Below are positions 8,109 to 43,990 of a stretch of DNA of 64,000 bases, in pieces (positions within the stretch are counted from its first letter, which is position 1; each line of letters opens with the position of its first letter). The notes below the pieces were generated by a model. That model was given only the letters and a program-made list of their open reading frames with translations, did no database searches and was not told where the DNA came from. Location: IMG/VR virus record IMGVR_UViG_3300043571_000263. One strand, 5' to 3'. This DNA is from an uncultured virus (IMG/VR IMGVR_UViG_3300043571_000263) (Duplodnaviria > Heunggongvirae > Uroviricota > Caudoviricetes). The translations under genes and the position numbers were made by a program.

Positions 8109-8622
8109 AACCTCAGATTGCCCCACCCCAATAAACCAGCCCCACCTCAAGTTACAATTGATAGTATCTTCCCCGTATTGTCCTACAATATGTAGCGTGG
8201 CGCTTGAACTATTGCCCCAAAACCAAGCATAGCCCCATCTAACGCCTTTATCTAAACACCCAGTTAATCAATTCCCCAAATTATACATAATTGGCGTTAG
8301 TTAATTTATATTGTCAATATAAAAATATAGGATTTAGTTTTTGAGAAAAATTTCTTGAGGGGGTATATTTTTCACCGCCGCCGCCCCCCGCTATGAGAGG
8401 GTGGGGGGTAGACCGGTGTGGTAGGGGTCTGTGATTCGATGGCTTGCTGTCGAATGTGCGCTCCGTGGGGCTGTGCATTACCGAGCCACGTTCGCAATCG
8501 TGCGCTCTTTTCCCATCGTCTCTTTCCCTTGCCCTACTCTGTGCAAGATATATTGATAATGTTTTCTCATCCGTATATGTCTATGCCACTAGGCAAAACA
8601 ACTAACACCCAATACACATACC

Positions 8623-9448: not shown

Positions 9449-9551
9449 CTCCCGCACGACGGCATCTCTTATTTGTAATGATTATAAATAACAATAAAAA
9501 AACAATTTGACAAATTGAACACCCACGGCAAAAATCCGTATATTAAAAAAG

Positions 9552-9755
9552 ATGAAAACAAAACAAAAAGCCACAATGGAAAAAATGTTCCGAGATGGGA
9601 TGAAAAGCGGGAAGTTTCCGCACCCAGAAAACAAAGCAAAGGCATTGAAGGCGGTTGCAAGTGAGTTTACTGCACCCCTTGTCAGAGCTTATTGGTCAGG
9701 CTATCTATGCCAATCTTTACAGAAAAAATACTGTGTCGATCTAAAGCTATTTTAA
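9552..9755 (+). CDS. Early hypothetical protein
   Basis: Preceded by early element. Confidence 0.55.
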   Translation: MKTKQKATMEKMFRDGMKSGKFPHPENKAKALKAVASEFTAPLVRAYWSGYLCQSLQKKYCVDLKLF

Positions 9756-9767
9756 AAAATAAACACC

Positions 9768-9971
9768 ATGAAAGCAAAAAACAAAATTGATACGTCTATG
9801 GGGCGCGTTAATCTCCATGTTCGCGCTATCCTAAGGAATCCAAGGGGTGCGGGGTTTTATTTGCGGGGCATCATTCGTGAGGCGTGTAATGTCTCTCTTA
9901 TGGATTCTGTGATCATTTGCGGCACGGCGACAATACTTTTACTGATAGCGATTGACAATCTGATAAACTAA
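9768..9971 (+). CDS. Early hypothetical protein, C-terminal hydrophobic segment
   Basis: AAACACC-ATG start. Confidence 0.5.
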   Translation: MKAKNKIDTSMGRVNLHVRAILRNPRGAGFYLRGIIREACNVSLMDSVIICGTATILLLIAIDNLIN

Positions 9972-10004
9972 TACCAACAAATAAATCCGTATATACTAAC
10001 ACCC

Positions 10005-10220
10005 ATGAAAACAAGCAAATTCAACCCGGAGCGCAGAGCAAAACGAGAAAAAGAATATGAGATTAAATTGAGAAAAATAAGGCAAAGAATTTTTGACTAT
10101 GAGGGAACAAGCAAGGAGGAAAAAGCAGAAAGAGTCTTAATGAAAATCAAAAATGAGTTTCTGCGCCTGCGCGGATTCTCCGACTACAACAACCCAAGTT
10201 TTAATTGTTATCTTTACTAA
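10005..10220 (+). CDS. Early basic hypothetical protein
   Basis: Preceded by early element. Confidence 0.6.
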   Translation: MKTSKFNPERRAKREKEYEIKLRKIRQRIFDYEGTSKEEKAERVLMKIKNEFLRLRGFSDYNNPSFNCYLY

Positions 10221-10230
10221 CAAAACACAC

Positions 10231-10515
10231 ATGAAAACAAAACAGCAAGAATTAGACATAATTGAAAACGCAATCTCACATCTATATGAATTAGAGGCCA
10301 TGATGCGAGCAGATTGCTTCCCTATAATTAGCTTGTCAGAATCGCAGGACATTTTCGAAAAGCAAATCAAAGAGGCGACAATGAAGGCAAAGCAAATTCT
10401 CGCCAATGCAAAACAATCTGCCGACGAATTGAGGCGGGAAAATGATGCCAAAATCACTCGATCAAAAGAATGGGCATACTCTGCATTGCAGAAAGCTATG
10501 GCAAATCTCCAATAA
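10231..10515 (+). CDS. Early coiled-coil hypothetical protein
   Basis: AAAACACAC-ATG start. Confidence 0.6.
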   Translation: MKTKQQELDIIENAISHLYELEAMMRADCFPIISLSESQDIFEKQIKEATMKAKQILANAKQSADELRRENDAKITRSKEWAYSALQKAMANLQ

Positions 10516-10538
10516 ATAAATCCGTATATACTAACTCC

Positions 10539-10736
10539 ATGAAAACAAAACAAAATAATTGCACAATTTGCAATCGACCAATAATTCTGGTTCCAAGTGC
10601 GAGCGAGCGCGCAAGAAAATATGGCAAAAGTCCAAAGTTTTACAAATCGATATTCACGACTCATGACGATTGTTTGATAAACAAAAGAAACATGGAAACC
10701 AGCGAGCTAATCAAAAAACATTTCACTAAAAAATAA
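10539..10736 (+). CDS. Early Zn-binding hypothetical protein
   Basis: CTIC...LVPSASERARKYG...H..C. Confidence 0.65.
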   Translation: MKTKQNNCTICNRPIILVPSASERARKYGKSPKFYKSIFTTHDDCLINKRNMETSELIKKHFTKK

Positions 10737-10756
10737 CACACCAAAATACACACACC

Positions 10757-11134
10757 ATGAAAAAAACACTGACAACATACGATATTGCGAACGAATTACA
10801 CAGCGACAAAAGTGCCGGATGGTCATGGGCTGGAGCCTTGGCATTGGCCGAATATCTTGAAGAATTAGACCGAGAGATCGAGCAGGAAATGGAATTTGAT
10901 GCGGTTGCCATACGCTGTGACTTTTCAGAATATAAAAACTTGCAAGAATGGGCAAAAGATTACTTTTGTGGAGAGGACAATGCAAAGAGGGAATTGTGCG
11001 ATGAATATATGCCCGACGAAAACGAATTATCAGATAATGATGAGGAAATTCCCGACGACAAAATCAAAGAATATATAAACGATAACGGCATCTTGATTGA
11101 GTTCGACGGCGGTATCATCGTCTCATCATTCTAA
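10757..11134 (+). CDS. Acidic early protein (possible antirestriction/DNA mimic)
   Basis: AL.EYLEE...EFD.VAIRCDFSEY; very D/E rich. Confidence 0.65.
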   Translation: MKKTLTTYDIANELHSDKSAGWSWAGALALAEYLEELDREIEQEMEFDAVAIRCDFSEYKNLQEWAKDYFCGEDNAKRELCDEYMPDENELSDNDEEIPDDKIKEYINDNGILIEFDGGIIVSSF

Positions 11135-11153
11135 ATCCGTATATATATCTGCA

Positions 11154-11284
11154 ATGAGCATCAATAAAAACATCCACTGCGCATGGGTAATCTCTGACAT
11201 TATCGGCGATACCGCGTGCAGAAAACATACTACTACATAACAAAGAAACAAGCAATTCAACTATTCAAGAAAGAAAACAAATGA
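11154..11284 (+). pseudogene. Frameshifted small early gene
   Basis: MSINKNIHCAWVISDIIG then shifted-frame YRVQKTYYYITKKQAIQLFKKENK ending in TGA overlapping next ATG. Confidence 0.5.
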
Positions 11285-11493
11285 AATACTATTATTACAT
11301 CAACCTAAACGAACGTGGAGAATTCTTTGCGGACGTTCGTGATGCAAATGATAAGACGATATTCGAAATCCAAGGATTCAGCATCTTCGAAGATGGACAC
11401 ATGCAACACGCAAAAGATATTGAAGGATTGCGAGATCACCTTATCGAATTAAACATCATTGATCCTGACGATCACATTGAAACCGGAGACTAA
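11281..11493 (+). CDS. Early acidic hypothetical protein
   Basis: YYINL.ERGEF.ADVR...IFEDG.M.H..D..GL. Confidence 0.65.
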   Translation: MKYYYYINLNERGEFFADVRDANDKTIFEIQGFSIFEDGHMQHAKDIEGLRDHLIELNIIDPDDHIETGD

Positions 11494-11501
11494 CACACAC
11501 C

Positions 11502-11648
11502 ATGAACAAACAACACACAGAATGGCCTTGGAGCCTTGAAGCAGTGAAAGACTATCTGCGGCACGGGGACACCGGAACCGATGCGAAAAGCCGTCACGCC
11601 CACATTGTCCGTGCCGCTATCGCCAAAGCCGAAGGGAGGAACCCATGA
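11502..11648 (+). CDS. Short HTPGPW/ARAAIAKA-family protein (48 aa, internally deleted)
   Basis: Manual read MNKQHTEWPWSLEAVKDYL...VRAAIAKAEGRNP. Confidence 0.55.
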   Translation: MNKQHTEWPWSLEAVKDYLRHGDTGTDAKSRHAHIVRAAIAKAEGRNP

Positions 11649-11944
11649 AAGCAATCAGCAAATATCAAATCGTAGATCATGGTGTAGAACATTCTCAATT
11701 CTTTAGTGGATGCGGAACTTCGTTTACAGAATACGAATCGGTTTATACAGGAATAGGCGATACACCATTTGAGGCCCTAGAAGATGCGCTCAACGAAGCT
11801 TCTATGGATGATTGGGACTGCGAGCACATTGAAAACGAATTGTCAGACAAATCGGACATTCCGGAAACGGAACAAGAAGATGATGATGAATTATCGGTTG
11901 ATGTAGGCGAGCTGTATCACTACGTCTCCATCAGAGTAAAATAA
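11645..11944 (+). CDS. Highly acidic early protein
   Basis: D/E-rich, GGGAGG RBS. Confidence 0.65.
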   Translation: MKAISKYQIVDHGVEHSQFFSGCGTSFTEYESVYTGIGDTPFEALEDALNEASMDDWDCEHIENELSDKSDIPETEQEDDDELSVDVGELYHYVSIRVK

Positions 11945-11966
11945 AAATCCGTATATATTAACGACT

Positions 11967-14435: not shown

Positions 14436-16036
14436 TACCGGAGTCAACGATAAACGACATTACATCACGGGTGCGCCTCTCCGAAATTGCAGGGGATTAC
14501 TTTCCTGTTAAACGGAGGGGCCACCAGTATGTTGCGTGTTGTCCTTTTCACAACGAGAAAAGCCCCTCGTTCTACATCAATGATAACAAGAACGTTTACA
14601 AGTGCTGGGGATGCGGGGCAGGAGGCGGCATATTCCGCTTTGTTATGGACATGGAGCGCATTAGCTTTCCAGAAGCTGTTAAAAAGATTGGTGCGCGTTT
14701 AGGCATTGTTGTTGAGGAGGAGGAATCAGAAGAATCCAAGCAGAGAAAAAAGATGGCGTCCTCGCTTTATGCAGCATCGAGATTTTTCTTTGAGCAACTG
14801 ATTGGAGCTGCCGGAGCTGAAGCAAGGAAACAACTAAAATCGAGGGGATTCACTAAGGAGATTTGCGAAGAATGGGGTATTGGCTATGCGCCTAAAAACT
14901 ATTCGCTCTCAGGAAATCCAGAAATTTTGAAGGGGGCGGGATTACTTTTGGATGGGGGCTATCCCAAGTTCCGCGAAAGAATCATGTTCTCAATCCGCGA
15001 CGAATCAGGAAACATTTGCGGATTCAGCGGAAGAACCACGGCGAACCATGCGGCAAAGTATCTCAACTCTCCAGACTCCAAGCTGTTTAGCAAGGGCAAG
15101 CTGCTTTATGGGCTTGATAAAGCAAAGCGGGACATCATTGATTCTGGCAAGGTTGTCATTGTTGAGGGGCAAATTGACGCAATTCGCTGTCATCTGAATG
15201 GGATTAAAAATGTGGTGGCCCCGCTTGGAACGGCCTTTACCACCCACCATTGCCAGACCATCAAACGTCTTTGCGGCGAGGCTGTTCTTGCCTTGGATGC
15301 AGACAGGGCTGGCAAAGAAGCCTCACGAAAAATATTTTGCGCCCTTGCCCCTATCGGTGTGGATGTTAAATCTGTCTTGCTGCCAGACGGAAAAGACCCA
15401 GACCAATTCATCTTGGACGGAGGCAATCTGTCGGAATTGATAGACAACGCCAGTGGTTACATTGACTCTCTGGCTGATGGGATGATTGGAAAGATCGAAA
15501 CAGCCGAAGAAAAACTGAAGGCTGCAAAACAAATCGGAGCCGCCATTTCCAATTTAGATGAGGGAATTATCAGGGATGCTGTCGTTTCCTCTGTTGCTCC
15601 CAAACTTGGAGTTTCGATAGGCGAGCTAAACAAGCACGTTGCCATGCGCGGCGGTCACTCCTGCGTTCCCACAGAGAGCAAGAGAGAGATAAGCGAGGCT
15701 GTCAAAACCCTCATAGCACACGGAATCCTTTGCGGAAAGGATGAGATACAAAAATACAACTGGGAAATAATCGGAGACGAAGATGTTAAGTTTTTGATTC
15801 ATTCTGATTTCGATCACACCAATCAGTCCTCAATCGCCATGCTTTTGGCCGGAATGAATCCTGAAATCGAAAGCTATCTTGTGGACATTAGCCCAGAATC
15901 GGTCAAGTCTGCACCAATCGGCGAGATTTATCGCTCGCTTTTAGGACTTGAATTGAAGAAGAAAACAGAAGAAGTTGCACACGGCGGGAACATCAAAGAC
16001 CTGATTCCTCTACTCGAAGAATACAAGAAGCTATGA
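14432..16036 (+). CDS. dnaG: DNA primase (DnaG type)
   Basis: CHC2 Zn finger CPFHNEKSPSF...CWGCGAGG, KYLNSP, TOPRIM VEGQID and DADRAG. Confidence 0.95.
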   Translation: MIPESTINDITSRVRLSEIAGDYFPVKRRGHQYVACCPFHNEKSPSFYINDNKNVYKCWGCGAGGGIFRFVMDMERISFPEAVKKIGARLGIVVEEEESEESKQRKKMASSLYAASRFFFEQLIGAAGAEARKQLKSRGFTKEICEEWGIGYAPKNYSLSGNPEILKGAGLLLDGGYPKFRERIMFSIRDESGNICGFSGRTTANHAAKYLNSPDSKLFSKGKLLYGLDKAKRDIIDSGKVVIVEGQIDAIRCHLNGIKNVVAPLGTAFTTHHCQTIKRLCGEAVLALDADRAGKEASRKIFCALAPIGVDVKSVLLPDGKDPDQFILDGGNLSELIDNASGYIDSLADGMIGKIETAEEKLKAAKQIGAAISNLDEGIIRDAVVSSVAPKLGVSIGELNKHVAMRGGHSCVPTESKREISEAVKTLIAHGILCGKDEIQKYNWEIIGDEDVKFLIHSDFDHTNQSSIAMLLAGMNPEIESYLVDISPESVKSAPIGEIYRSLLGLELKKKTEEVAHGGNIKDLIPLLEEYKKL

Positions 16037-17382
16037 CCATATTGAATCTTGGACGATTGGGCGACAACATAAATCTGTTGCCTGTTGCCTATGCCGAACA
16101 CTTGGCTGGAAGGCGTTTAACATTTGTTACTGCTGGCAAATACAGCGAGATATTCGATGGTGTCACATATTGCGACATCAAAAGATACAGCGGAGACCCA
16201 ATAGAACTTCAATACGCCAAGGATTTATGCGGTGGCCTTACAGATTTGCGGGTGGCACAGGTGTTTATGAACCAAGATCAGCGATACTTGGAGCCGTCCT
16301 TTGCCAAGGAAAGCTACAGGCTGGCTGGGGTTTTGGATTTGTGGAGAAAGTTTCCTTATGTTCTCGATCGGCGCAGCCCTGAACGAGAGCAAGAATTACT
16401 CAATCAGATATTCCCCAAGGCTTATGATGTTGAGCCATTCATTGCTGTTGCCACGCATGGGGTGAGTTCGCCATTTCCAAATAGCGAAAAGATACTGTCT
16501 GGCTTGCGTGAAAGGTTTGCTGGCTGGAAAATTGTCGATCTTTCCACGATCAGGGCGGAAAAATTCCACGATCTGTGCGGGATTCTGGATGCGGCAAGCT
16601 GTTTAATCACGATTGATACCGCCCATCTGTGGCTATCCAATGTCACTAAATGCCCCGTAGTGACGTTAGTTAACGATGGCTGGCGTGGTAGCCCGCCCCC
16701 AGTAACAAGCGTGGCCTCGTTCAGATACAGGGATTTCCAGATAGACCAAATATGCGATAGCGTTGAATCGTGCATGCTTCCCCATGGTTCGGTTGTCGGG
16801 GTCGTGGATAGGTTCGGCAAGGAAAAGCGTCACAGAGAGGCCCACAAGAGCCAGCAAAGGGCATTCAGCATGATGTTTGGTAATACCGGAATCGAAAGAA
16901 CGGCACAAGATATTGGCGACCCAAGGCCATTGCCAATGCTCAAGGAAATGTTAAGAAGAGCGGTAATGTTTTCATCTGATAGGGACATTATCATTTGGAC
17001 AAACGATGATGTTAAGATTCTGGACTTGTTTCCACTTGTTAATCACGCACGAATCTTTGGCGCGGCAAGTGTTCGACGCGACCCCGCCCACATTGGCAGG
17101 GAGATGTTCGCCTTCCGTTGGGACTGGCTGGCAGACAGACTAAGAGATTTTCCAGACGTTGCGGTGGCCTGTCCTTGGTTTGATTTGGCGATTGCTGCTT
17201 GGATTCGCAAACAATTCGGATGGAACAGCACAATGCAAAATCTGGAATGGGATTTATACCCTTGCGAAATAGCCAACGATGGTCTATTTATCCATCCAGA
17301 CCACGAATCAAGCTGGACAGATAAAATGGAAATGCCAGCGGCGAAGTGGAACGAAAGAATATTCAAACAATTATTGCAATGA
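16033..17382 (+). CDS. Two-domain glycosyltransferase (GT9-like N-term + GT-A-like C-term)
   Basis: LGRLGDNI and ITIDTAHLWL (GT9-like); IIIWTNDDV. Confidence 0.65.
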   Translation: MTILNLGRLGDNINLLPVAYAEHLAGRRLTFVTAGKYSEIFDGVTYCDIKRYSGDPIELQYAKDLCGGLTDLRVAQVFMNQDQRYLEPSFAKESYRLAGVLDLWRKFPYVLDRRSPEREQELLNQIFPKAYDVEPFIAVATHGVSSPFPNSEKILSGLRERFAGWKIVDLSTIRAEKFHDLCGILDAASCLITIDTAHLWLSNVTKCPVVTLVNDGWRGSPPPVTSVASFRYRDFQIDQICDSVESCMLPHGSVVGVVDRFGKEKRHREAHKSQQRAFSMMFGNTGIERTAQDIGDPRPLPMLKEMLRRAVMFSSDRDIIIWTNDDVKILDLFPLVNHARIFGAASVRRDPAHIGREMFAFRWDWLADRLRDFPDVAVACPWFDLAIAAWIRKQFGWNSTMQNLEWDLYPCEIANDGLFIHPDHESSWTDKMEMPAAKWNERIFKQLLQ

Positions 17383-17912
17383 GAAAACTAAACTTAGGTT
17401 GCGGTGGAAACATTTTAGACGATTGGGAAAATCACGATGCAGATTTGGACATAAGTAAACCACTTCCACACGAAGACGAATCTATCGACTTCATTTTTGC
17501 GGAACATGTTTGCGAACACCTAACAACCCCAGACGTTGTAAGGTTTTTCATGGACGCTTACAGGGTTCTTAACGTTGATGGCGTTATCAGGATTGCCGTC
17601 CCAAGTGCAGACAAGATTATGGACAAAGCTGACGAAGCCTATCTTGCTTGGTTTGGACAATCTGGATTCGGTGACGGAACAAGACGTTCAGCCGTTCAGT
17701 CAATCCTATTGAATCACGGTCATCTTTCTGCTTGGAATTTCCCAATTCTAAAAACGTGTTTGTATGCCGCTGGATTTGAAGAAGCATACATAACTGAATG
17801 TAGGGTTGGCGAATCAAGCCATGAAGAACTTCGCGGAATCGAAGGCCACGGAAAGGTTATTGGAGAGCACAACAACAAAATAGAAACAATCGTAATGGAG
17901 GCGGTGAAATAA
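17379..17912 (+). CDS. SAM-dependent methyltransferase
   Basis: KLNLGCG, AEHVCEHL, RVL..DG.IRIAVP. Confidence 0.85.
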   Translation: MRKLNLGCGGNILDDWENHDADLDISKPLPHEDESIDFIFAEHVCEHLTTPDVVRFFMDAYRVLNVDGVIRIAVPSADKIMDKADEAYLAWFGQSGFGDGTRRSAVQSILLNHGHLSAWNFPILKTCLYAAGFEEAYITECRVGESSHEELRGIEGHGKVIGEHNNKIETIVMEAVK

Positions 17913-18475
17913 TGGAACTTGTAATGGATGGACACTTGGGAGGATTTGTTCGCGGCGGCGACCCAGACACATACGATACTGCGGTATGGTCAGAGTTAAT
18001 CAAAACGTTTAATCCACAAAACCTAATTGATATTGGATGCGGTGAGGGCCACTCGGTAAAATGGTTTGCTGACAACGGGGTTGATGCCATTGGTATCGAG
18101 GGTTCAGCCAAGGCATTGGACAATAGCCCAGTCAAAGACCGCATCATCCTCCACGATTACACCAAAGGCCCATACAAAGTTGAATCGGAATTTGACATGG
18201 CTTGGTCTTGCGAGTTTGTCGAACATGTTGAACCGCAATATGTCAACAATTACATGGCAACGTTTAATTCGGCGAAGATTGTAGCCATGACATACTCTGA
18301 ACCCAAATGGAGTGATGGGGGGCATCATCATGTTAATTGCCAACCCCAATCCTATTGGAACGACATCTTTGAATTCTGGGGATATCAATGGATGGAAGAC
18401 TTCTCGCGGGACTTGAGGTCTATTGCTACGGCGCGTTGGATAAAGCCCACCCTATCTATCTACCGCAAGAAATGA
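17912..18475 (+). CDS. SAM-dependent methyltransferase
   Basis: LIDIGCGEG, CEFVEHV, GGHHHVNCQP..YW. Confidence 0.85.
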   Translation: MELVMDGHLGGFVRGGDPDTYDTAVWSELIKTFNPQNLIDIGCGEGHSVKWFADNGVDAIGIEGSAKALDNSPVKDRIILHDYTKGPYKVESEFDMAWSCEFVEHVEPQYVNNYMATFNSAKIVAMTYSEPKWSDGGHHHVNCQPQSYWNDIFEFWGYQWMEDFSRDLRSIATARWIKPTLSIYRKK

Positions 18476-19116
18476 ATTACATCATTGGTTCGGGCTACCA
18501 TCGTCGCTGCGATTGGGACGAGATGATGCTTGGGGTTTGGAAAGCTAACACCGAAAGGTATTCCAACAACTACTATATCATGTCCACGGACTACAGTAGT
18601 GGATTAGAGGGTGACATCTTTCTGGATAACAACTTGGGTCATGTCGGAGACCTAATCAAAGAAGGTCGCGAAGGGCTGTGTGGCTGGTCGGCTTCTGTCT
18701 GTGCGCTGGCTATGATTGCCTATAACTGTGGTAGAGATTTCATTTACAAAGAAGCTGATTGCCTGTGGTTTGGGTGGGTTCCTGAAAAGATGTACGAGGA
18801 TATTGGTGACAAGGGCATGGTCTTCGGGGCGAAGATGGATGCTCCACCTTGGATGAATTGCGCCCAATCCACGTTCCTTATACGCCACAGTTTCATTCTG
18901 GGTTTCTTGCGGGGATACCTATTCCTCCCCCATGACAAGGATATGCTTCCAGAAGACAAATTTGTTAAGCTGGAAGAGAATAGTCCCAACAACTACGGGA
19001 GGCTTTCTTTCGGGGTTGACCGCATGAGACCGCTGCCTTGGGACGCCGAAGTATGGTATGCCCAGCAGTGGACGCAGGAAGAATTGGACGAGGCTAAAAA
19101 GCGGAAACTGATCTAG
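18472..19116 (+). CDS. Putative GT-A glycosyltransferase-like protein
   Basis: DFIYKEADCL (DxD-like), context in GT/MTase operon. Confidence 0.45.
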   Translation: MNYIIGSGYHRRCDWDEMMLGVWKANTERYSNNYYIMSTDYSSGLEGDIFLDNNLGHVGDLIKEGREGLCGWSASVCALAMIAYNCGRDFIYKEADCLWFGWVPEKMYEDIGDKGMVFGAKMDAPPWMNCAQSTFLIRHSFILGFLRGYLFLPHDKDMLPEDKFVKLEENSPNNYGRLSFGVDRMRPLPWDAEVWYAQQWTQEELDEAKKRKLI

Positions 19117-22100
19117 CGTCCAGAAAGAATACGAGCCATTTCCCTTTCGTTTTCTTTGGATTTACTTTTAATTTCCCTTCTTGCCCGATCCACCATACGA
19201 GCAAAGTCGGCATCGTTAAGCCTCATCAAGTAAAGCCAATCGGAAAGCGCGGCGAAGTAGAGAAGGCGTTGCTCTTCGGTTGTGAAGTTTTCCATCTCTT
19301 CTGGGGCCATAAGAGTCTTGGTTTCAAGAATAGCTTTCTTGCCTTGATCAAGCCCGATATCAAACATGCCCAAGCTCATGGCATTATCGAACGAGCGATA
19401 ACGCCAGAACGGAGAACGCTCTTTGGCGTATTGTGAAAACGATATAATCTCACCATCTTCACCCAATACGGTTTCATTTTCGGTCTGCATGGCGATCAGA
19501 TAGGCGGCATAGTTGAATGTATCTATAGTTGCCGCTTCAACAATCTGTCCAGAACCACCGACCAAAAGGTTGGCAGTAAATTCACCAAGGAACTGCCTCC
19601 AGCGTTTTGCAAAATCTTCGGCCTTTTTCTCTTCGTCTGGTTCATCCATGTCAACCCCGAATGCCGCATAAATCATTGAAACGCCAAGCCCAGTAAAGGC
19701 TGGCAGGGCAAAACGGCGGACGCTATGGAAGGCGACAAGACCACCAATAGTCGACGCAAGACCGAATCTTCCAGCAATGGTATCTCCAGATTTTGTGAAA
19801 GAATCGCGGGCATCAGAGTAAATCCTCATTCTTTGCTGGACGGCAAACGAGTTGAATGGAACAAAAATGGCCTTGAAAAGATTTTCCCAACCAGACTTTC
19901 CGCTTTGGACAAATGTTGCCATTTTGGTTGGATCAGAAGAACCTTGATAAATATCGGTCATCTGCTCGGCATAGGATGCGGCGTCCTGTCGGGCTGTGTC
20001 GGTTTCCAAAAGTTCCGCCTCTTTCTCCCATCCTTGGAAGGCAACTCCATCTTTGGCAAGTTGCGCCCGATAGTAAGTCATCCAAGCACCAGCCGCAAAA
20101 ACGTAGTCTGTTTTCTTTAGGGCAAGCAACCACACATCGGCAATTTTTCCAGCCTGTTCTTTGGCGGCGTCCCAACGACTTTCGCTCAAGTAACGCTCAA
20201 TCTTGTTCTGCGCCCCCTCCATTTGGTTGATGTATTTGTAGCCAGAAGAAGCGTCTCCACGGCGACCAATGGAGAACTTATCAAGAAGAGCCTTGGCGGC
20301 TTTTAATGCCGAAGGAGCCATGTTTTCAGCCATTAGATCGGCGCGACCAGTTGTTCCAATAGCCGCAATGATCTGGTCTGGAGCCTGTTTGAATGGCTGG
20401 TAAGCACCACCAAGGGCGATACCAGTGCCGATTTTGCGAGCAAACACCGAAAGAACATCAGCCGTTTTCTCAATGTATCCAGTTGACATGCTGCCACGGC
20501 GCATTCTGGAAAGACGCAAGCGATTAAGCCTTTCAATAAAGAATTCCTTGTTTGCCGCACCACCGAATAGTTTCTCGGATTCTGGCGTTTTCATGAACGC
20601 GAAAATTTGCTGCCAAGCTGGGCTTGTGTAAGCCTTGTTGATCTGATCAGACAAAGAATCAAACGCATTGCGTCGAAGGTTGAATTCAATTTCCTTGGGC
20701 TTGTTGGTTGTCTTGTCTGTTGGAAGCTGGGTGTAGTCGGCTCGCTTGATTGTATAGGAAGATTGTTTCGGGCGCAAACTGACATGCTCGTAATACAAAG
20801 CCTCATTTTCTGGGGTGATAGCAAGCGACACTCCAGCTCGAATAAATCCAATTGGAAGATAGTCGGTGTTCTCGTAGTTGTTTGCCTGATCATTGAAGTT
20901 CTCATCAAACCCCTTCAAGAACTCTTTGTATTTCGGGAAAAGCGTATCCTTGAGCCATATCACAGATTCATAGTTTGCTCTGTAATCGCGCTTGAGATTG
21001 TCCATGATATCACTGACGCTTTCTCCATCGAGTTGTTGCAATATGCGTTCAATACGATTCGCCATTTCGATTCGATCTGCGTCTTGAGATATGCGACGAT
21101 TGCGGATGTCCTGTTGAATCAGGTTGCGGCGTTGGGCCAAAGACTCAATCTCTCCCTTCTCTGGAACTTTCTGAATGAGAAATCCCACGACACCTTCAGC
21201 AAGGATGCCGTCTTGATTGCGGGCTGCTGCCTTGTATTTATTTTCAAGTTTATTGTAGAACTCGGCTATCTCTTCTTGGATTTGGTTGACCGCATTGGCC
21301 GCTGCGGTGAAGCCGCGATCCAGATCATACATGCCCATCATGCGGTAAACCTTGGCCATGGCCCCCTTTCCGAAAGCGTTGCGGAAAGTATCGGCAACGG
21401 ATTGAAGTTCCAACGCCCAATTTCTCCAAGTCTTTTGCAATGTGCGAGAACGAAGTGAAGGAAGAACATTTACCCATGCCTTGTTTTTGGCGATCAATTC
21501 TTCATTGCTTGCAGCCTCCTTGGCCATTTGCTGTCCCTTTGCCGTAACGGCAAACAATTCTGCGCCGTGGGTCTGGTTGTTGAAAATGATGTTGTTGCCA
21601 ACACGGATAAACTGTTGCTTCTCTTGGCTGCTAAGAAGGGATGGGTCTAGATTCAGAATTGAATCAAGAATCTTGCGTTGATCGTTTCGTAGGGAGGTTT
21701 GATCGTGTGCCTTGAGTCCGGCAAGAACGTCATTTGCTTTTTCGTTGATGATGGCTTCAGCGACCTCGCGCTTGGCATACTGCACCAAAGCCCGTTCAAT
21801 ATCCTGTGCATCAAGAATTTCCCGAATCCTGTCAGGGGACACTCCGTATTTTTCGGATAGTCGTTGTGTGACAACACGATCAAACGCAATCTTTGCCTCC
21901 TCGACAATATCTTCAGCTTGTGAAAGATAGCTGGTCATCTCATCATCTGGAACAACCAGATAATCAGGAGATACCACAGACTTGAATCCACGCATGTAGT
22001 AATTGACCACATCGGCAAACTCGCGTGGATTGTCCAACATGTTTACTCCAATCTTGGTGACGTTTGAAAGAATCTCTCGCTGTGGAGAAGCTATGGTCTT

Positions 22101-25100
22101 GCGCTTGGAAAGCTCTGCCGCCCTCTTCTGTGCCGCCTTGGCCTCGCGCAAATCTGCATCATAGTTTGTATTGGCTACAACCTTCTCAGCATAGGCTGTG
22201 AAAGATTCCATGGATTTCTCACTCGTCCAGATAACTTTGGCTGCGCGTTTGGCAAGGGCTTGCGCCTGTTTAGGGCGCACGGGGCCGCGAAGTTCCATGG
22301 CCTTAATCATCTCGACCACTTCGTTAGCTGTTTCTTGTTGGGCCTTCTTGGCTTCACGGTTCGCCGCCGCTCGCATCCGAATCTGATTATTCAGGAGCGA
22401 TCTTTCTGTAGCGGTGATCTTGACTGGAGGAACACGCACACCCGTAGTCACATCAATCAGACGCTGGATGACGGTCTTGGGACGCTTTGGATCGGCCTCC
22501 TTGGGAATCGACACACCCTCCGGAAGCCCCTCAAGAGAGACGCCCTCGGCGGTTTCGACACGCGCTTCTGCGATTCCCTGCTGGATATCGTATTGCTTGG
22601 CAATAGCATTGGCTACCCGCTTGGCATTGGCTGGGGTGAGGTTGGTATACTCTACCACCATGTCTTGGAGTTGGCGGGCATCTCCCCCTTGATCCATCCA
22701 GACAGAGGCTATCTCGCTGATCTTGTAGGTGGGTTTGTTTTCGGGGTTTGGCTTGGCCTCGGACGCCGCATCCACCTTGGCCATAGATGAGGCCATAGTA
22801 GATAGAGTAGATGCTTCGGGGCTTCCCTCGGAGAAGGTGGGGATGGCGTCTTCTCTGCGGGATTCGCGGATCTCTTCACCTCTTGCTGGTCGCGGAGTTA
22901 CGGTGATTCCCTGCTTTTCCAATTCGGCTTTTAGTGACGGGGTGACCGTGTTTTCTGGAATAGAAAGATTTGTGCCTTCAAGAAGATTTGAGATGATTCC
23001 AGCAACCTCGCTGTCAGGAACAATGCGGACAACCTTGGCGTAACGGGAAAGAATGACCTTGCGTTTCTTGTCGGCGGGAAGCTTGCTGCTCACGGGGCCA
23101 GCATTCCAGCGGACTTCGCCAACGGCATCCTTTGCGCCTTCTGCTTTGTAGCCACTGGTTAACTCGCTGGCGGGAACCTCGACTTCAACGGTAACAAGAT
23201 TATCTCTTTTGTAAGCGGACGAGAATTGATCGTTGAGCGGAGAAGTGGATGTGTGAAAATACGGGTTGTATGCTGCGGGGACTGTTGCTTTGTTGCCCTT
23301 TTGCAGAATGAATTTGCCTCTCTTGTCCAGCAAATCTGGACGCTCTTCGGCTTTTTCCCATGTTCCAATTTCTGTAGGCTTGCGGAGCTTGCCACCGACC
23401 AGCGCGGACATCGGAGGATATAGCTTACCATCAATGACTTGCATTGCTCGGTAAACACGGATCTTCTCGCCTCTTTCTAGTTGTTCTATTTCTTGTGGCG
23501 TTAGTTCGGTCTGCGATCTACGGCCCATATCGGCATCAACGACAGCTTGCTCGCCAACTCGCGCTTCCCTAGCCTCTCCTTGCACATTGATAAATTTGTT
23601 GTATGCCTGCTTGAATTCGGCGTTGATCTCGGAAACGTTTCGGGCGGCGATGTATTCGGCGGCTCGGCGGGTGAGCTTGTAGCCCAGCTTGTTGGCCCAT
23701 GCCTCAATCCGCGCCACAGCCCGTTCAAACCAGCGTCTGCCCCTCCATCCTTCGGCCAGTAATTCGACGGCTCTGGCGGCTTCCTCGGCGGTTCTAGCAC
23801 GTTCTGAGTAGCCCAGTCGGGTGATGGCATCGTTGATTTCTTTTCTTTCTTTCGGGGTCAACCCCGCCACCAAACGATTAAGCGCCCCATCGGCATTGGC
23901 GGATTCGGCAATCTCATGGTTCAAGACTCGTTCTACAGCGGCATCGTCTTTCAAGGCTGCGGCGTTTAGCTCTATACCTACCACCTTACCATCTCGGATG
24001 ATGGTGCGGCCCTCAAAGGAGGCATCGGGTTCATTGACCACCGATACGATCCCACCCCGCCCGAATCCCAAAGACTCTAGCTTTGCAGTCACTGCTTCGG
24101 GTTTCATGCCAGCAGGGCGCGGCATCTGGATCTTGGCATACCTGATATCCTCTTCTGTGGGCTGGAAGCGTTGGCTGGGAGGGATGATGTTGCCTTTGTC
24201 ATCGCGGGTGATTACTTCTCCAGATTTGATCTGATTCGGAGACGAAACAACGATCTCCCTATTTCCGATTTCTGGATTTGAGATCAAAACATCTATTGCG
24301 TTATCTCCGCGAAACTTGCTCCACAATTCGACTCGACCTTGGGTTGTGGATTCCAACGCAGTCAACTCTTGGTTTGTGCGTCCAATTCTATCTCCCTTCA
24401 AGTATGCCTTGATTAAACGTTTGCCATACTTCTTGGCATATTCTTTATCAGGAGAGAAAAAGAATAGCGAGAATCCCTCTCTTTTGAATGAAGTGAATTC
24501 ACCAGAATCGGTTCCATGCCACATTGGGCCAATGTTGTATCCAGCGCGATCCGCCGCCTCATCCACTAGGCGTTGTGCCACATCCAAATCTCCTCTTTCC
24601 ACCGCATCTAAATACTCTCTGTCTTGTTGAGTAAGGGGAGCGGGTTCCCTGCGGGATTCTCTTACTTCGGGGGCAGGTGACGGGGTTGCCCCTCTCGTTA
24701 CACCTGTGCGTTGCGCTTGTTGTATTCTTGTTTCAGTCGGCGCAACTTGTCCAAGTCCCGCAACACCAGTTCGTCCAGAAAATCTTCTACCTCCTCTTTC
24801 GACATCTTTGAACTTTTGTTCTGATTCGTCAATTGCTTCTCTGATGTCGTCTGTGGTGAACCCTTCATCGGTTGCCTCTTGTATGTATTCATAAGCTTGC
24901 TTTCTGTCTATTAAGTTTTTGCGTATAAGAAAACCGCTAAGTGCCGCCCTCTCAAGCGGAGTAAACGATTCAAGTATTGTGGCTGCATCGGTTCTGGATG
25001 CAACAACATCAGGGGTAAGCTGTCCATCGTCAAGCTTATCTCCCAATTTTACACCCTCATCTTTGTCCTCATCCATGGAGGACTCTATCTCGTTGATTTC

Positions 25101-27620
25101 TCCAGAAAATCGCTTTAAGTTTTTGACATCATCAAAAGCTGACGCAACCATTCTTGCACCAGAAATTGTTTTTACTCCGCGCTCAAGTGATCTCCTGAGC
25201 CTGTCTGCCGCCTTGTCAATCACGGCGTCTCTAAAGTCATCAGACCTGTTCTTCGTCATTGCCGTTATTCTTGCCGCCATGTTGGCAATGGTCTTCCTGA
25301 TGCTCTCCTCTTTTTCTGGAGTAGCGGCTATCAAATCTTCGGCAAACGCGAACAGGCGATCAAATGTGGTAAGGGCGGGAACCTCGTCACGAACGTCTGC
25401 GTCCTCAACTTCTTCCGAAACTTGTTTTTCTCTTGCTACTCGGCGTAGAGGTTCAATATTCGGGGTTTCGGGGGTCGGAGTTACTTCGGGGGCCACCTCG
25501 GCGGGAGGAAGCGCGAGAGTTTCTGGCTGGGCTTGAGACTGGGCCAATAGAGAGTTTTTAATTTGATTATGGATGGTTTCCGCCGCGATCCTAGCCTCAT
25601 CTACGCGAGCTTGTTTACCAGCGTCTGTCAGATTGGAGTTTGGCCCAAGAAGACCTTCGGGAGACAGCCCCTCGGCTTCAGCCCGATACTTGAAGATGGC
25701 TTCGGAAAGTTTCTTGATGGTCGCCGCATCATCATCAAAAGCTTCTTGTCCTCGCTCTGACACTTGGGCGATTAGACCTTCGTCTCCTTGCCGTGGCGCG
25801 GCATACACATTCTCAATAATAGAGAAGGCGGGATTGGTGATGAGATCATTTTCCGTTACGCCCTGCTCCGTGAAGGCTTGGTTTACGATGTTTCGGTAGC
25901 TGTTGATGGCCCCGCGATCCATGGCAAGCCGCTCTTCAAGAATTGCGGCGACCTCTGGGGAGTTATCAGCCTCCTCAAACGTCATTCCGCTTTCTACAAG
26001 TTCGTCAATCTTGGCATCGATACGATCCTGTATCGGTTTAACTCTTTCTTCGTAATTGAAAATTGTTACAGACCTGTCTTCGGGTAATGGCTCTTTTGGC
26101 GTTACAAATGGTTCTGCTGGCACTATTGCGGCTGGCTGCGGCTCTGCTGCTTCTGGAGTAACTGCTGGCTCTACAGGGGCTACTGCGCCTTCGGGAGTTG
26201 GTTCTACGGGCGGGGTGACTGTAACAGGTGGCTCGACCGCGACTTCAGGCTCTTCCTCTAATTCAATTTCCGTAGCGGCTCTGGCTTCTTCTTGGAGTCG
26301 GGCTACTCGCTGTTCGGGGGTTTCGGCGCGTTCGCGTTCAGTCCTTGCTCGCCATTCTTGATTTGTTTCGCCTTCTTGGCGCGGTGATACCGTTGCGTTA
26401 ACAGATAGTGTTTCCGCCTGTCTCTCCACAAGAGACGCCGTTTCTGGAGCGATGTCCATATTCTGCCTAGCCACATCCTTTGTTTCCGATGCGGCTGCAT
26501 TAACCTCTTGAGTTGTTGGGGGAGAAATCCTTGGCTCAATGGCCCCCGCTCCAGCACCAATAGCGACACCAGCAAGACCTTCTAATGCCCCGCGAGAGAA
26601 CACTCCTTGCGTTAGCGGAACATTCACACCCTCTCTTTGCAGTGCAAGATTTGAAGCAAACGCCTCTTGTGCGGCCTGTGCAAATTCTGGAACACCTTCA
26701 GTGAGTCCGCTCTTCAGGGTGTTTCCAATGCGACTGGCAGTTGGGGAAATCCCGCCCTTTGTGAGAACCTTGCTGATAATGCTTTCCGCGCCAGTATATG
26801 CAGACGCTGCACCCAGTCCCGCTGAGAGCAAAATTTGATCTAGGTTTTTTCCGCCGAACGACTGCGCTTCCATGGCGATGGAGCGAGCCATTTCTTCGGT
26901 CTTACCCTGAGAAATCATCTCGTCTTTTACGGATTGATAAATCTCACTCTTGGCAATGCCAGCACCCATGCCAGCACCCATGCCAGCCTGAACGGCCTGT
27001 ATGCCGCGAACACCAAGACCAGCAGCGCGGCCAACCGCCCCGCCAATGGCGAATGTTGCCAAAGAACCCAAGCCAGAGGACACGAAATCAACAGGGGCTA
27101 CAGCAAACGCCTCCAAACCAGCTTTAAGCTGTCCGCCGATGCCCTCGTTTTCCGCTGCCTCCATTATGCGAGAAATCTCAGCTTCGTCTTCTTTTGCAGA
27201 CGCCGAAAGAAGAGAGCGATACCAATCAACATTTTGGTTTAGATTTTGCGAAACGGGATTGTCAGCACCAAAGAGGTCGGTAAGACCCTTGATGCTATTG
27301 TTGACACCTATGGCAAACTGAACTGGAATATCAGCCGCCTGACGAAGTATTGATTCTGGCGGCGGTGGCGGCGTTGGTAGCTCAATCCCAAGAGATTCTG
27401 GGGTTGGTGCTTCAGTGGAAATTAGCGACGGCGTGCTTGGTTTTTCTTGTTCTTTCTGATCGACGCCATTTGAAAAGAATCTAGAAACTTCATCTAGTGA
27501 ATACCCAGCATCTTTGGCCTGAGTGAACCGATCATCTTGTTCGGATGCAAATCCCCAAATTTCATCATCTGAGTAACCAGCATCCCGCGCTTGCTTTAGT
27601 TTATCGGCGGTAAAATTCAT
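19113..27620 (-). CDS. Giant internal virion/ejected polyvalent protein (2835 aa) with sigma-like, ART-like and degenerate metallopeptidase domains
   Basis: N-terminal AGYSD.EI repeats, Gly/Ala hydrophobic region, WHGT...FFFSP...AYLK...NQIKS, LNHEIAE, helical C-terminus; last of virion-core genes. Confidence 0.8.
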   Translation of the reverse strand: MNFTADKLKQARDAGYSDDEIWGFASEQDDRFTQAKDAGYSLDEVSRFFSNGVDQKEQEKPSTPSLISTEAPTPESLGIELPTPPPPPESILRQAADIPVQFAIGVNNSIKGLTDLFGADNPVSQNLNQNVDWYRSLLSASAKEDEAEISRIMEAAENEGIGGQLKAGLEAFAVAPVDFVSSGLGSLATFAIGGAVGRAAGLGVRGIQAVQAGMGAGMGAGIAKSEIYQSVKDEMISQGKTEEMARSIAMEAQSFGGKNLDQILLSAGLGAASAYTGAESIISKVLTKGGISPTASRIGNTLKSGLTEGVPEFAQAAQEAFASNLALQREGVNVPLTQGVFSRGALEGLAGVAIGAGAGAIEPRISPPTTQEVNAAASETKDVARQNMDIAPETASLVERQAETLSVNATVSPRQEGETNQEWRARTERERAETPEQRVARLQEEARAATEIELEEEPEVAVEPPVTVTPPVEPTPEGAVAPVEPAVTPEAAEPQPAAIVPAEPFVTPKEPLPEDRSVTIFNYEERVKPIQDRIDAKIDELVESGMTFEEADNSPEVAAILEERLAMDRGAINSYRNIVNQAFTEQGVTENDLITNPAFSIIENVYAAPRQGDEGLIAQVSERGQEAFDDDAATIKKLSEAIFKYRAEAEGLSPEGLLGPNSNLTDAGKQARVDEARIAAETIHNQIKNSLLAQSQAQPETLALPPAEVAPEVTPTPETPNIEPLRRVAREKQVSEEVEDADVRDEVPALTTFDRLFAFAEDLIAATPEKEESIRKTIANMAARITAMTKNRSDDFRDAVIDKAADRLRRSLERGVKTISGARMVASAFDDVKNLKRFSGEINEIESSMDEDKDEGVKLGDKLDDGQLTPDVVASRTDAATILESFTPLERAALSGFLIRKNLIDRKQAYEYIQEATDEGFTTDDIREAIDESEQKFKDVERGGRRFSGRTGVAGLGQVAPTETRIQQAQRTGVTRGATPSPAPEVRESRREPAPLTQQDREYLDAVERGDLDVAQRLVDEAADRAGYNIGPMWHGTDSGEFTSFKREGFSLFFFSPDKEYAKKYGKRLIKAYLKGDRIGRTNQELTALESTTQGRVELWSKFRGDNAIDVLISNPEIGNREIVVSSPNQIKSGEVITRDDKGNIIPPSQRFQPTEEDIRYAKIQMPRPAGMKPEAVTAKLESLGFGRGGIVSVVNEPDASFEGRTIIRDGKVVGIELNAAALKDDAAVERVLNHEIAESANADGALNRLVAGLTPKERKEINDAITRLGYSERARTAEEAARAVELLAEGWRGRRWFERAVARIEAWANKLGYKLTRRAAEYIAARNVSEINAEFKQAYNKFINVQGEAREARVGEQAVVDADMGRRSQTELTPQEIEQLERGEKIRVYRAMQVIDGKLYPPMSALVGGKLRKPTEIGTWEKAEERPDLLDKRGKFILQKGNKATVPAAYNPYFHTSTSPLNDQFSSAYKRDNLVTVEVEVPASELTSGYKAEGAKDAVGEVRWNAGPVSSKLPADKKRKVILSRYAKVVRIVPDSEVAGIISNLLEGTNLSIPENTVTPSLKAELEKQGITVTPRPARGEEIRESRREDAIPTFSEGSPEASTLSTMASSMAKVDAASEAKPNPENKPTYKISEIASVWMDQGGDARQLQDMVVEYTNLTPANAKRVANAIAKQYDIQQGIAEARVETAEGVSLEGLPEGVSIPKEADPKRPKTVIQRLIDVTTGVRVPPVKITATERSLLNNQIRMRAAANREAKKAQQETANEVVEMIKAMELRGPVRPKQAQALAKRAAKVIWTSEKSMESFTAYAEKVVANTNYDADLREAKAAQKRAAELSKRKTIASPQREILSNVTKIGVNMLDNPREFADVVNYYMRGFKSVVSPDYLVVPDDEMTSYLSQAEDIVEEAKIAFDRVVTQRLSEKYGVSPDRIREILDAQDIERALVQYAKREVAEAIINEKANDVLAGLKAHDQTSLRNDQRKILDSILNLDPSLLSSQEKQQFIRVGNNIIFNNQTHGAELFAVTAKGQQMAKEAASNEELIAKNKAWVNVLPSLRSRTLQKTWRNWALELQSVADTFRNAFGKGAMAKVYRMMGMYDLDRGFTAAANAVNQIQEEIAEFYNKLENKYKAAARNQDGILAEGVVGFLIQKVPEKGEIESLAQRRNLIQQDIRNRRISQDADRIEMANRIERILQQLDGESVSDIMDNLKRDYRANYESVIWLKDTLFPKYKEFLKGFDENFNDQANNYENTDYLPIGFIRAGVSLAITPENEALYYEHVSLRPKQSSYTIKRADYTQLPTDKTTNKPKEIEFNLRRNAFDSLSDQINKAYTSPAWQQIFAFMKTPESEKLFGGAANKEFFIERLNRLRLSRMRRGSMSTGYIEKTADVLSVFARKIGTGIALGGAYQPFKQAPDQIIAAIGTTGRADLMAENMAPSALKAAKALLDKFSIGRRGDASSGYKYINQMEGAQNKIERYLSESRWDAAKEQAGKIADVWLLALKKTDYVFAAGAWMTYYRAQLAKDGVAFQGWEKEAELLETDTARQDAASYAEQMTDIYQGSSDPTKMATFVQSGKSGWENLFKAIFVPFNSFAVQQRMRIYSDARDSFTKSGDTIAGRFGLASTIGGLVAFHSVRRFALPAFTGLGVSMIYAAFGVDMDEPDEEKKAEDFAKRWRQFLGEFTANLLVGGSGQIVEAATIDTFNYAAYLIAMQTENETVLGEDGEIISFSQYAKERSPFWRYRSFDNAMSLGMFDIGLDQGKKAILETKTLMAPEEMENFTTEEQRLLYFAALSDWLYLMRLNDADFARMVDRARREIKSKSKENEREMARILSGR

Positions 27621-30606: not shown

Positions 30607-31386
30607 TTAAAAAAGAGGTTTTGCGCTCGCTCCATTACCAACCCAAGGCAAAAATTCTTTCAGGTCTTTCACTGGCCAATTTTTGTTTTTCTGCAACCTG
30701 CCCCAATCCTCGCAAGCGTTCTCATATCCGCCGCGATATATGCGCTGTTTTTGTGCCACCTGTTGCGGCGTCACCCAAGCCATATGGAGGATGCTTCCGA
30801 CAGTATCAGACGTTGCCTTACGATCCAGTAGGTTGCCCTTGTTTCCATTAAAGATCGGTGGTTCATGCCGTTCCATCCATAGCCCTACACTGTATCGCCA
30901 AGCCCGAATCCATTCGTTCTTTCGATTTCCATAGCCATCTGATGATGTGGAGATTACGTTAGGCCCAAGCATGTAGTCCATCTCAAACTGTGCGGTATTT
31001 GCTTCGGGATTTTTCTCAAACAAATAAAGCAGCTCGATCATCTGGTGGAACGTCCACAACTCATCGCTATCCATTTGAAGCAACACTCCGTCACTGTTAA
31101 ATGCCGTTAATGCGGCGTTGATCATCTCTGTCTTTCCGCCCCATTCCGGCTTTGAGTTAACGGTAATTCGTGGATGAGTCGCTAGGGCTTGAATGAACTG
31201 ATGGGTTCCATCATGGGAGACTTTTCCGATCTGGTTTCCCATCCACGCTGTATCCTTCTGCGGAAGAGATGCGCCCTCGACTATTGACCAATGCCAATCA
31301 ACATCCCTCAATCGGCACAGTTCGGCAAATTGCGATCCAATCCAAGGGGAGCCATCAAGAACAATAGTGAATATGTTGAGGGTCAT
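30607..31386 (-). CDS. Glycosyltransferase (GT-A fold)
   Basis: IFTIVLDG.PWI, S.DGT, LQMDSDELW. Confidence 0.75.
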   Translation of the reverse strand: MTLNIFTIVLDGSPWIGSQFAELCRLRDVDWHWSIVEGASLPQKDTAWMGNQIGKVSHDGTHQFIQALATHPRITVNSKPEWGGKTEMINAALTAFNSDGVLLQMDSDELWTFHQMIELLYLFEKNPEANTAQFEMDYMLGPNVISTSSDGYGNRKNEWIRAWRYSVGLWMERHEPPIFNGNKGNLLDRKATSDTVGSILHMAWVTPQQVAQKQRIYRGGYENACEDWGRLQKNKNWPVKDLKEFLPWVGNGASAKPLF

Positions 31387-41608: not shown

Positions 41609-42706
41609 TTATGGAACGTTAGGATAGTTAGTCCAAGTTGATACAGTGATGCCGGACTTGTCTCCAATGGTTTGGCCAGAGCCTAGCGTGTAACCCGTAG
41701 CGTCTGGGCCGATATAGACATCGGTGATTGACGTGGCATAAAACGCATAGCTGCCAATGGAGCCTATAGGTTGATTAAGATAGGCAACTGTAAGGCCGGA
41801 GCAACCTGCGAATGCAGAGCCTCCAATAGTTGTTGCAGAGTTTCTAATAGTGACGCCTGTTATTAAATTGTCTCGAAACGCTCCTTGCCCAATTGAGGTG
41901 ATAGAATCGGGAATAACAATGCTTGTTAGAAGGTTGTATGCAAACGCATAGTCGCCGATTGAGGTGACGGATGCGGGAATTGTGAGAGAGCCAGATAGTT
42001 TGGCACTATTGGCAAAACTATCCTGAATGGCTGTTCTACCGTCTGTGAGTATGACGCTGCTTATGAGGCCGTCCGCGAACGCATAGCTTCCAATGGATGT
42101 GACAGAAGTTCCAATTGTAAGTGATACATAATTGTTGAATCGAAACGCATAGCTTCCAATAGAAGTGACAGAATTGGGGATTATTAAATCGCCCTCAAGG
42201 CCGCTGCAATATCGAAACGCACTGCTTCCAATGGAGGTAACGGAATTGGGGATTATTAAATCGCCCCCAAAGCCGCCGCAATATCGAAACGCACTGCTTC
42301 CAATAGAAGTGACAGAATTAGGGATGACTAGGTTGCCGGTAATGTTATAGCAACTGGCAAAAGAACTAGCTCCAATTGAGGTGGCGGAATTACCAATGTA
42401 AAGTTGAGTGAGGTTGGAGTTGTAAGATTGCCAGCTATTAGGAATGTCGCCGTAAACGAACAAAGAATCCCCTGCTGCGGAGTCATAGACAAAAGTTGGC
42501 AATATGGGAAGGCTGCTTGGTGATGCGGCAAATGACCACGCTCCCGATTTGCGGCCATAAAGGTCGCCATCAGAAGGAGCGTCTTGCAAGAAAGAATTGG
42601 CGGCTATCTTTCTGGTATTATTTACCGCGCCGTCTATAGCAAAAAAGTCACCAGCCGATGGGGCTGTTGCTGTCGTTGCTATGTCTTTGATTCTTTGATC
42701 GGCCAT
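41609..42706 (-). CDS. BspA-type leucine-rich-repeat protein A (putative virion adhesin)
   Basis: Tandem IPNSVTSIGS.AF..C repeats; DAPSDG.LYGRK.GAW fibre motif. Confidence 0.85.
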   Translation of the reverse strand: MADQRIKDIATTATAPSAGDFFAIDGAVNNTRKIAANSFLQDAPSDGDLYGRKSGAWSFAASPSSLPILPTFVYDSAAGDSLFVYGDIPNSWQSYNSNLTQLYIGNSATSIGASSFASCYNITGNLVIPNSVTSIGSSAFRYCGGFGGDLIIPNSVTSIGSSAFRYCSGLEGDLIIPNSVTSIGSYAFRFNNYVSLTIGTSVTSIGSYAFADGLISSVILTDGRTAIQDSFANSAKLSGSLTIPASVTSIGDYAFAYNLLTSIVIPDSITSIGQGAFRDNLITGVTIRNSATTIGGSAFAGCSGLTVAYLNQPIGSIGSYAFYATSITDVYIGPDATGYTLGSGQTIGDKSGITVSTWTNYPNVP

Positions 42707-42712
42707 GGCTTA

Positions 42713-43980: not shown

Positions 43981-43990
43981 GGCCCCCAAA

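Follow-up and report, generated by a model that had tools for sequence, protein, structure and literature searches.

A probable sigma70-derived cassette in a giant polyvalent protein of an uncultured tailed phage

Early transcription in phages is known to rely on the host holoenzyme or on an injected polymerase, and injected enzymes also modify the host polymerase. In T4, the sigma-like fold of gp55 is used as a partial sigma. Free phage sigma factors and injected polymerases have been described (PMC7824862, PMC4496689), and sigma-like folds are found as mimics, partial sigmas and flap binders, including PhyR (PMC4598750) and the T4 proteins gp33 and AsiA (PMC7824862). Unlike the cassette described here, PhyR, gp55, gp33 and AsiA are free proteins made in the cell and not modules of a virion-type giant protein.

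Phage polyvalent proteins (Iyer et al. 2017, PMC5512222) are, like the protein studied here, giant multidomain products of late genes with ART-PolyVal domains and mosaic cassettes, and their delivery with the DNA has been predicted. They commonly, though not universally, also have a zincin-like MPTase with an HExxH motif, of which the present giant shows a variant. The transcription modules covered in the main text of that survey are however N4-like polymerases and modifying enzymes, and the word 'sigma' does not occur in that main text, supplements excluded. The ejection operon of N4 and DEV likewise places two smaller genes before a giant Cys-free gene with transcription-related cargo (PMC11445570, PMC13434306). 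The cargo there is a virion RNA polymerase, whereas the present giant has no detected polymerase domain and carries an optional sigma-like module. Sigma factors without domain 3, such as M. tuberculosis SigH and SigL, E. coli RpoE and the two-domain phage sigmas, match the cassette in size (about 200 aa), in their two helical domains joined by a linker and in collinearity, while its 3.2-like and 2.4 motifs resemble those of group 1-3 sigmas. It differs from them in lying inside a 2,835-aa protein and below every library cut-off, in the loss from the window's copy of the aromatics of 2.3 and the Gln of 2.4, and in having an insertion in the helix-turn-helix and an acidic recognition helix. The cassette is a variant of the polyvalent-protein theme that resembles a sigma factor and falls short of the sigma family in the curated-model matches and DNA-reading residues described below. 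A literature search, judged mostly from titles, brought up no description of a sigma module carried by a virion-type giant.

The giant protein and its genome

The 64-kb stretch of DNA analysed (the window) comes from a contig at most 67.8 kb long. It is a tailed-phage-like genome in which family matches mark genes for terminase, primase, helicase and lysis, and genes for a putative portal, capsid and tail tube were labelled by gene position. Scans of 87 and 85 window ORFs turned up no RNA polymerase or free-standing sigma factor. Several other regions were recorded. Small genes are duplicated at 1390-2135 (+), where 53-nt and 38-nt repeats lie about 570-580 nt apart. A methyltransferase gene cluster with its neighbours (16033-19116, +) and a glycosyltransferase-like gene (30607-31386, -) possibly serve modification of the virion or host surface, and in the late region (41609-44896, -) a sulfotransferase gene lies between two BspA-type leucine-rich-repeat genes.

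The coordinates of the giant protein and its features are collected in Table 1. The giant follows two smaller genes, which probably encode further ejection proteins, and both this small-medium-giant order and the suppression of Cys agree with podophage ejection proteins, having been described for Schitoviridae ejection operons (PMC11445570, PMC13434306). Cys is absent from the giants of all 12 family members (the window and 11 related records, one giant possibly being cut by the record end) and likewise from both upstream gene products; the same holds for two further proteins of the window, 438 and 580 aa long. The first-pass annotation described the giant as virion-ejected. Its gene position, lack of Cys and neighbouring ART-PolyVal domain point to an ejection (cargo) protein, and its ejection is a prediction rather than an observation; the giant would be packaged, and the module presumably released from the polyprotein.

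The middle zone of the giant is a mosaic of swappable cassettes, and this mosaic and the ART-PolyVal-like domain give the long chain several effector domains of unrelated kinds, as in polyvalent proteins. The ART-PolyVal domain, below the Pfam cut-off in the window, is above it in the L002 and L022 giants. The only zincin-type motif of the window's giant, HEIAE, lacks the second His, and an intact HExxH is present in the other 15 of the 16 giants scanned; the G005 giant carries both forms. A globular-looking cassette without a family match, at aa ~1385-1585 of the giant (22860-23470, -), has high identity with the G005 giant.

Table 1. Positions of the giant protein, its probable sigma70-derived cassette and associated features in the window
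Feature	Residues	Coordinates	Strand	Remarks
Giant polyvalent protein	2,835 aa	19113..27620	(-)	0 Cys; last gene of the structural block
Probable sigma70-derived cassette	746-950	24771..25385	(-)	
Sigma2-like helical bundle	746-840	25101..25385	(-)	acidic 2.2-like positions kept
Acidic low-confidence linker, region 3.2 (sigma finger)-like	841-870	25011..25100	(-)	
Sigma4-like domain	871-950	24771..25010	(-)	insertion of ~8 residues before acidic 4.2-like helix
ART-PolyVal-like domain	1033-1133	24222..24524	(-)	E 1.8e-4, under Pfam cut-off
HEIAE, zincin HExxH variant		23904..23918	(-)	sole such motif in the window's giant
Cys-free gene	332 aa	27633..28631	(-)	directly upstream of giant; no family match; putative second ejection protein
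Cys-free gene	290 aa	28633..29505	(-)	no family match; putative first ejection protein
Five exact AAATCCGTATAT copies		9532..11956	(+)	at 9532, 9983, 10518, 11133, 11945

Resemblance of the cassette to sigma factors

The peptides that the first-pass annotation quoted as sigma-like are present in the order given, at aa ~767-940 (24800..25320) of the 19113-27620 (-) ORF. Their resemblance to individual sigma regions held in part when position-specific scans were run against a background of 43,635 residues from 14 related giants. Two segments stood out, VKLGDKLDD as a likeness of region 3.2 (p 0.002) and AATILESFTPLERAAL as one of region 4.1 (p 0.013), whereas the 2.1, 2.2, 2.4 and 4.2 segments were within chance (p 0.36, 0.16, 0.59 and 0.35). 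The acidic positions of region 2.2 align with those of sigma factors, and in P0003 the p value of this motif is 0.035. Sigma2-like part, 3.2-like linker and sigma4-like part follow one another as in a sigma factor, at the modest significance given by these 3.2 and 4.1 values and by a collinear alignment. The order claimed for a sigma70-family factor is present; the spacing is that of a sigma without domain 3 and not of a full sigma70.

No sigma model in Pfam, NCBIfam or PHROGs matched the window's copy, and none of the curated models (Sigma70_r2, r4, TIGR02937 and kin) rose above its cut-off; the best sigma-model match of any cassette member was that of P0003 to NF006550 (E 0.033). The sigma2-like part (25080-25360, -) also has a weak PHROG match, possibly due to chance, to the C-terminal part of phrog_2206 (E 0.0019), a family of virion RNA polymerases. 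Profiles were built from 93 reference sigmas, 68 of ECF size and 25 of groups 1-3, which are mostly actinobacterial with E. coli added. In local profile alignment the first half of the cassette fell on regions 2.1-2.4 and its second half on regions 4.1-4.2 (P 0.19 each). Global alignment to the pooled profile was collinear over 181 columns, a result that none of 40 shuffles and one of 35 natural tiles equalled; with the ECF-only profile, 16 of 40 shuffles reached the cassette's result. An HMM of the group 1-3 sigmas ranked the cassette first of 1,569 tiles (E 0.03), and with an ECF-only HMM it was outside the top tiles. Among ESM Atlas clusters, the nearest named one to the window's copy was Sigma70_r2, which was also carried by 24 of the 30 named matches of P0004, at feature overlaps of 124-148 that lie below the 170 typical of true family members.

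Two distant homologs, P0003 and P0004, are better preserved. An ordered chain of five motifs, with spacing windows chosen after the alignment was seen, scored 8.3 in the window, 13.8 in G003, 32.3 in P0003 and 18.6 in P0004. These scores were reached by 6, 0, 0 and 0 of 198 natural tiles and by 3, 1, 0 and 0 of 300 shuffles, respectively, and the reversed sequences scored 4.8, 4.4, -7.1 and 22.3. A phage sigma annotated as such and kept out of the training reached 36.2, near the value for P0003. Since P0004 scored higher reversed than forward, helix periodicity supplies part of the chain signal and the chain score of P0004 is unreliable. The same protein carries the exact sigma70 peptide IRQAIT at the 2.4 position; this peptide is present in 13 of the 25 group 1-3 sigmas and occurs once in the 43,635 residues of giants.

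Folding and fold comparison, one of the checks proposed with the original claim, gave a mixed outcome. AlphaFold2, run on a cassette alignment of only four rows, predicted two helical domains and a flexible, low-confidence linker (pLDDT 75) for the window's copy, from which the single-sequence model was likewise made. For both models Foldseek ranked chains F of transcription complexes first (top 5, E 0.81-1.0; top 3, E 0.45-0.58), which we take to be the sigma subunits, partly from the titles and partly by the usual chain-naming convention. Neither model had a match at E 0.001 or better, viral library included. The best 50 rows from the viral fold library comprised 10 named sigma factors and 16 unnamed proteins, among others. 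The top viral match, D9ZNG7 (E 0.072), is presumably phiCTP1 gp43, by equal length and accession order; it matched Sigma70_r2 only weakly (E 0.021), with a chain score of -0.6, and was not counted as support.

In structural alignments, sigma chains reached Z 5.3-6.0, below unrelated helical bundles (up to 9.2). Comparison of the sigma2 fold gave Z 5.6-6.0 and rmsd 3.0-4.6 over 73-87 residues, again below unrelated bundles, and the superposition among realigned Foldseek matches gave rmsd 3.0-3.3 over 73-78 residues. Every row that spanned both domains was a sigma chain; there were 2 such rows among 50 from the wide search and 9 among the 50 realigned Foldseek matches. A wide search with the single-sequence model had no sigma chain in its best 50, and sequence searches of solved structures returned only chance-level matches, such as MotA at E 0.67.

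Several tests, each weak, thus point alike to sigma2, sigma finger and sigma4 without sigma3. Two generic helical bundles in a low-complexity ejection protein might look like this without descent from a sigma factor, as the lack of a significant HMM or Foldseek match, the designed helical repeats and unrelated bundles that outscore sigma chains, the high reversed controls of the chain test and the occasional separation of the cassette halves would suggest. Such a chance resemblance is nonetheless unlikely in our judgement, given the chain score of P0003 with its clean controls, the exact IRQAIT at the expected position in P0004, the correctly ordered 3.2 and 4.1 motifs of the window and the restriction of two-domain alignments to sigma chains. 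No single test is decisive, and we consider it probable that the cassette descends from the sigma70 family, a judgement carried mainly by P0003 and P0004. The sigma70-family assignment of the first-pass annotation is accordingly supported at the level of the family, and not by any library model matching the window's own copy.

Limits, selection and distribution of the cassette

The cassette is a discrete, mobile module under purifying selection, the latter measured on one pair of sequences. Its stretch is 80% identical over 272 aa in the L002 giant (3,458 aa), while the flanks and most of the rest differ. When the window is compared with L002, dN/dS is 0.035 over the sigma2-like part (aa 746-840), where three of the 95 aa are changed, 0.032 over the linker (aa 841-870) and 0.28 over the sigma4-like part (aa 871-950). 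These values indicate that the cassette is maintained, its first half most tightly.

A search of 1.84 billion representatives with the cassette gave three matches: the query, P0003 (43%) and P0004 (28%), the last two being other giants. No free-standing form was found, and the word-index searches, which returned the query alone or nothing, are weak evidence of absence. Two metagenome scans yielded no confirmed relative, and neither the cassette nor the putative capsid protein had a tblastn match among cultured phage records. The sole genome-collection match, L005, lay outside any related gene and was dropped as chance.

Of the 12 family giants, 2 have the full cassette, 4 have the sigma4-like half by itself and 6 have neither; the full cassette is found in none of the four records that are at least 90% complete. 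The module is optional. Four more loci have the sigma4-like half alone. The relatives with this half and no sigma2-like half are L016, L019, L026, L029, L152, L153, L154 and L156, in which other short segments precede it; in those examined, HExxH domains come after it. In these eight the sigma4-like half may serve a job unrelated to the polymerase.

Possible roles on the host polymerase

Judged by the roles of sigma domains given in PMC4598750, the window's copy has lost its usual DNA-reading residues. The cassette is without sigma domain 3. In the 2.3-2.4 segment the melting aromatics are absent and Ser replaces Gln (score -6.5, rank 435 of 2,824), so that the aromatics and -10-reading Gln/Asn expected of a sigma are lacking; the 2.4 Gln is kept in P0003 and P0004. 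The basic 4.2 helix is lacking as well. The net charge of the 4.2-like helix is -4 in the window and lies between -1 and -4 in all eight family copies, whereas the 93 sigmas average +3.2 and only one of them is at or below 0. This acidic helix makes reading of a -35 element unlikely, and reading of a -10 element by the window's copy would require non-canonical chemistry.

Because these residues are lost, the window's copy is most likely a sigma mimic or handle. We tentatively favour, at somewhat less than even confidence for the mechanism as a whole, an injected mimic of or handle on host core RNA polymerase. A sigma70-family factor with sigma2, sigma finger and sigma4 and no sigma3 would have become an optional module of a polyvalent ejection protein. 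The giant would be packaged, cross the envelope and enter the cell with the DNA. There the sigma2-like bundle would dock on the beta-prime coiled-coil of host core polymerase, the acidic linker would occupy the RNA exit path and the sigma4-like domain would dock on the beta flap. The module could then compete with host sigmas or tether the polymerase at the entry site, where the neighbouring ART domain would possibly also be tethered. It had been suggested that the phage uses this domain to redirect or block host polymerase before any phage gene is expressed. Of these two actions blocking fits better, since the 2.3, 2.4 and 4.2 residues that redirection would use are not kept and 10 of the 12 giants are without the full cassette.

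Action at the AAATCCGTATAT elements had been proposed. These elements are real, with five exact copies and one with a single mismatch against 0.23 expected, and each exact copy sits just 5' of the ATG of a small gene. The sites are candidate -10-type promoter sites. Before the primase gene, TCCGTATAT occurs in 6 copies within 9 kb in the window and in 4 copies in G003, both of which carry the full cassette. It did not come up among the 9-mers repeated in the same region of seven other records without the sigma2 half, the position of that region being estimated for two of them. The primase of G003 is 91% identical to that of the window and those of the others 51-53%; the window and G003 being close kin, the co-occurrence of motif and cassette amounts to one comparison in one lineage. 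A collection scan for the motif returned 32 stretches, with 4 loci not covered. Two stretches came from the cassette family, and since both are G003 sequence the scan adds no independent test. The proposed link between cassette and elements thus depends on that lineage. Read directly, 4 of the 5 exact AAATCCGTATAT sites have a TAnnnT, compatible with a host -10 box, whose end lies 6-7 nt from the following ATG, and at the first site of the window and of G003 TTGAAC or TTGACA lies about 18 nt upstream; no shared -35 element was seen upstream of the sites. Host housekeeping promoters making nearly leaderless messages fit these sites just as well.

Two side observations concern the same regions. 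GTGACAAGG is repeated instead in the early regions of four of these seven records without the TCCGTATAT cluster (G005:36-42 kb, 5 copies; G023:22-24 kb, 3; G010:21-22 kb, 2; G019:12-13 kb, 2), and the window has a single copy at 13043. A G+C-rich run with opposing C and G tracts at 8370-8420, just before the early gene cluster, is possibly a terminator or genome-end signal.

A working injected sigma, comparable to T4 gp55 and gp33 fused in one chain, would read the -10-only TCCGTATAT with its sigma2-like domain and merely grip the flap with its sigma4-like domain. Early genes would then be transcribed before any phage protein synthesis, a third route beside the host holoenzyme and an injected polymerase. 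The presence of the TCCGTATAT cluster in the two full-cassette genomes and not among the repeats of the seven other records, the want of a shared -35 element, the strong constraint on the sigma2 part and the absence of a polymerase or free-standing sigma among the scanned ORFs all agree with such a factor. We regard both this factor and this route as unlikely, given that the kinship of the window and G003 leaves a single comparison, that TAnnnT and TTGAAC/TTGACA suit the host housekeeping sigma, that the melting aromatics and the 2.4 Gln are missing, that most giants, including all four records at least 90% complete, are without the full cassette, and that the window's giant has no intact HExxH protease motif to release the module.

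A sigma-derived module might also have been repurposed off the polymerase, perhaps to serve as a structural spacer or to work with the downstream peptidase or ART cassette. The sigma4-like half standing alone in eight relatives, with HExxH domains after it in those examined, and the weak 2.2 similarity would fit such a change of use. We hold it to be quite improbable, because the constraint on the sigma2 part and linker far exceeds that on the sigma4 part, as expected if the polymerase-facing surfaces still work. Least probable is a PhyR-like decoy for a host anti-sigma factor, whose capture would free an alternative sigma of the host. PhyR is a sigma2/sigma4 mimic not acting as a sigma (PMC4598750), and the DNA-reading residues are likewise missing from the window's copy. 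Against a decoy stand the conserved 3.2-like linker, of a kind that threads through the polymerase in sigma factors, and the lack of an evident gain to a lytic phage.

An injected mimic of or handle on host polymerase is therefore the reading we prefer, with the tentativeness stated above. If it is true that a sigma-derived module is delivered with the DNA, it would provide the phage with an instant inhibitor of host transcription or with a specificity factor. This 200-residue module and its natural variants, which include full cassettes, sigma4-only forms and better-preserved homologs, are open to direct testing with purified core polymerase.
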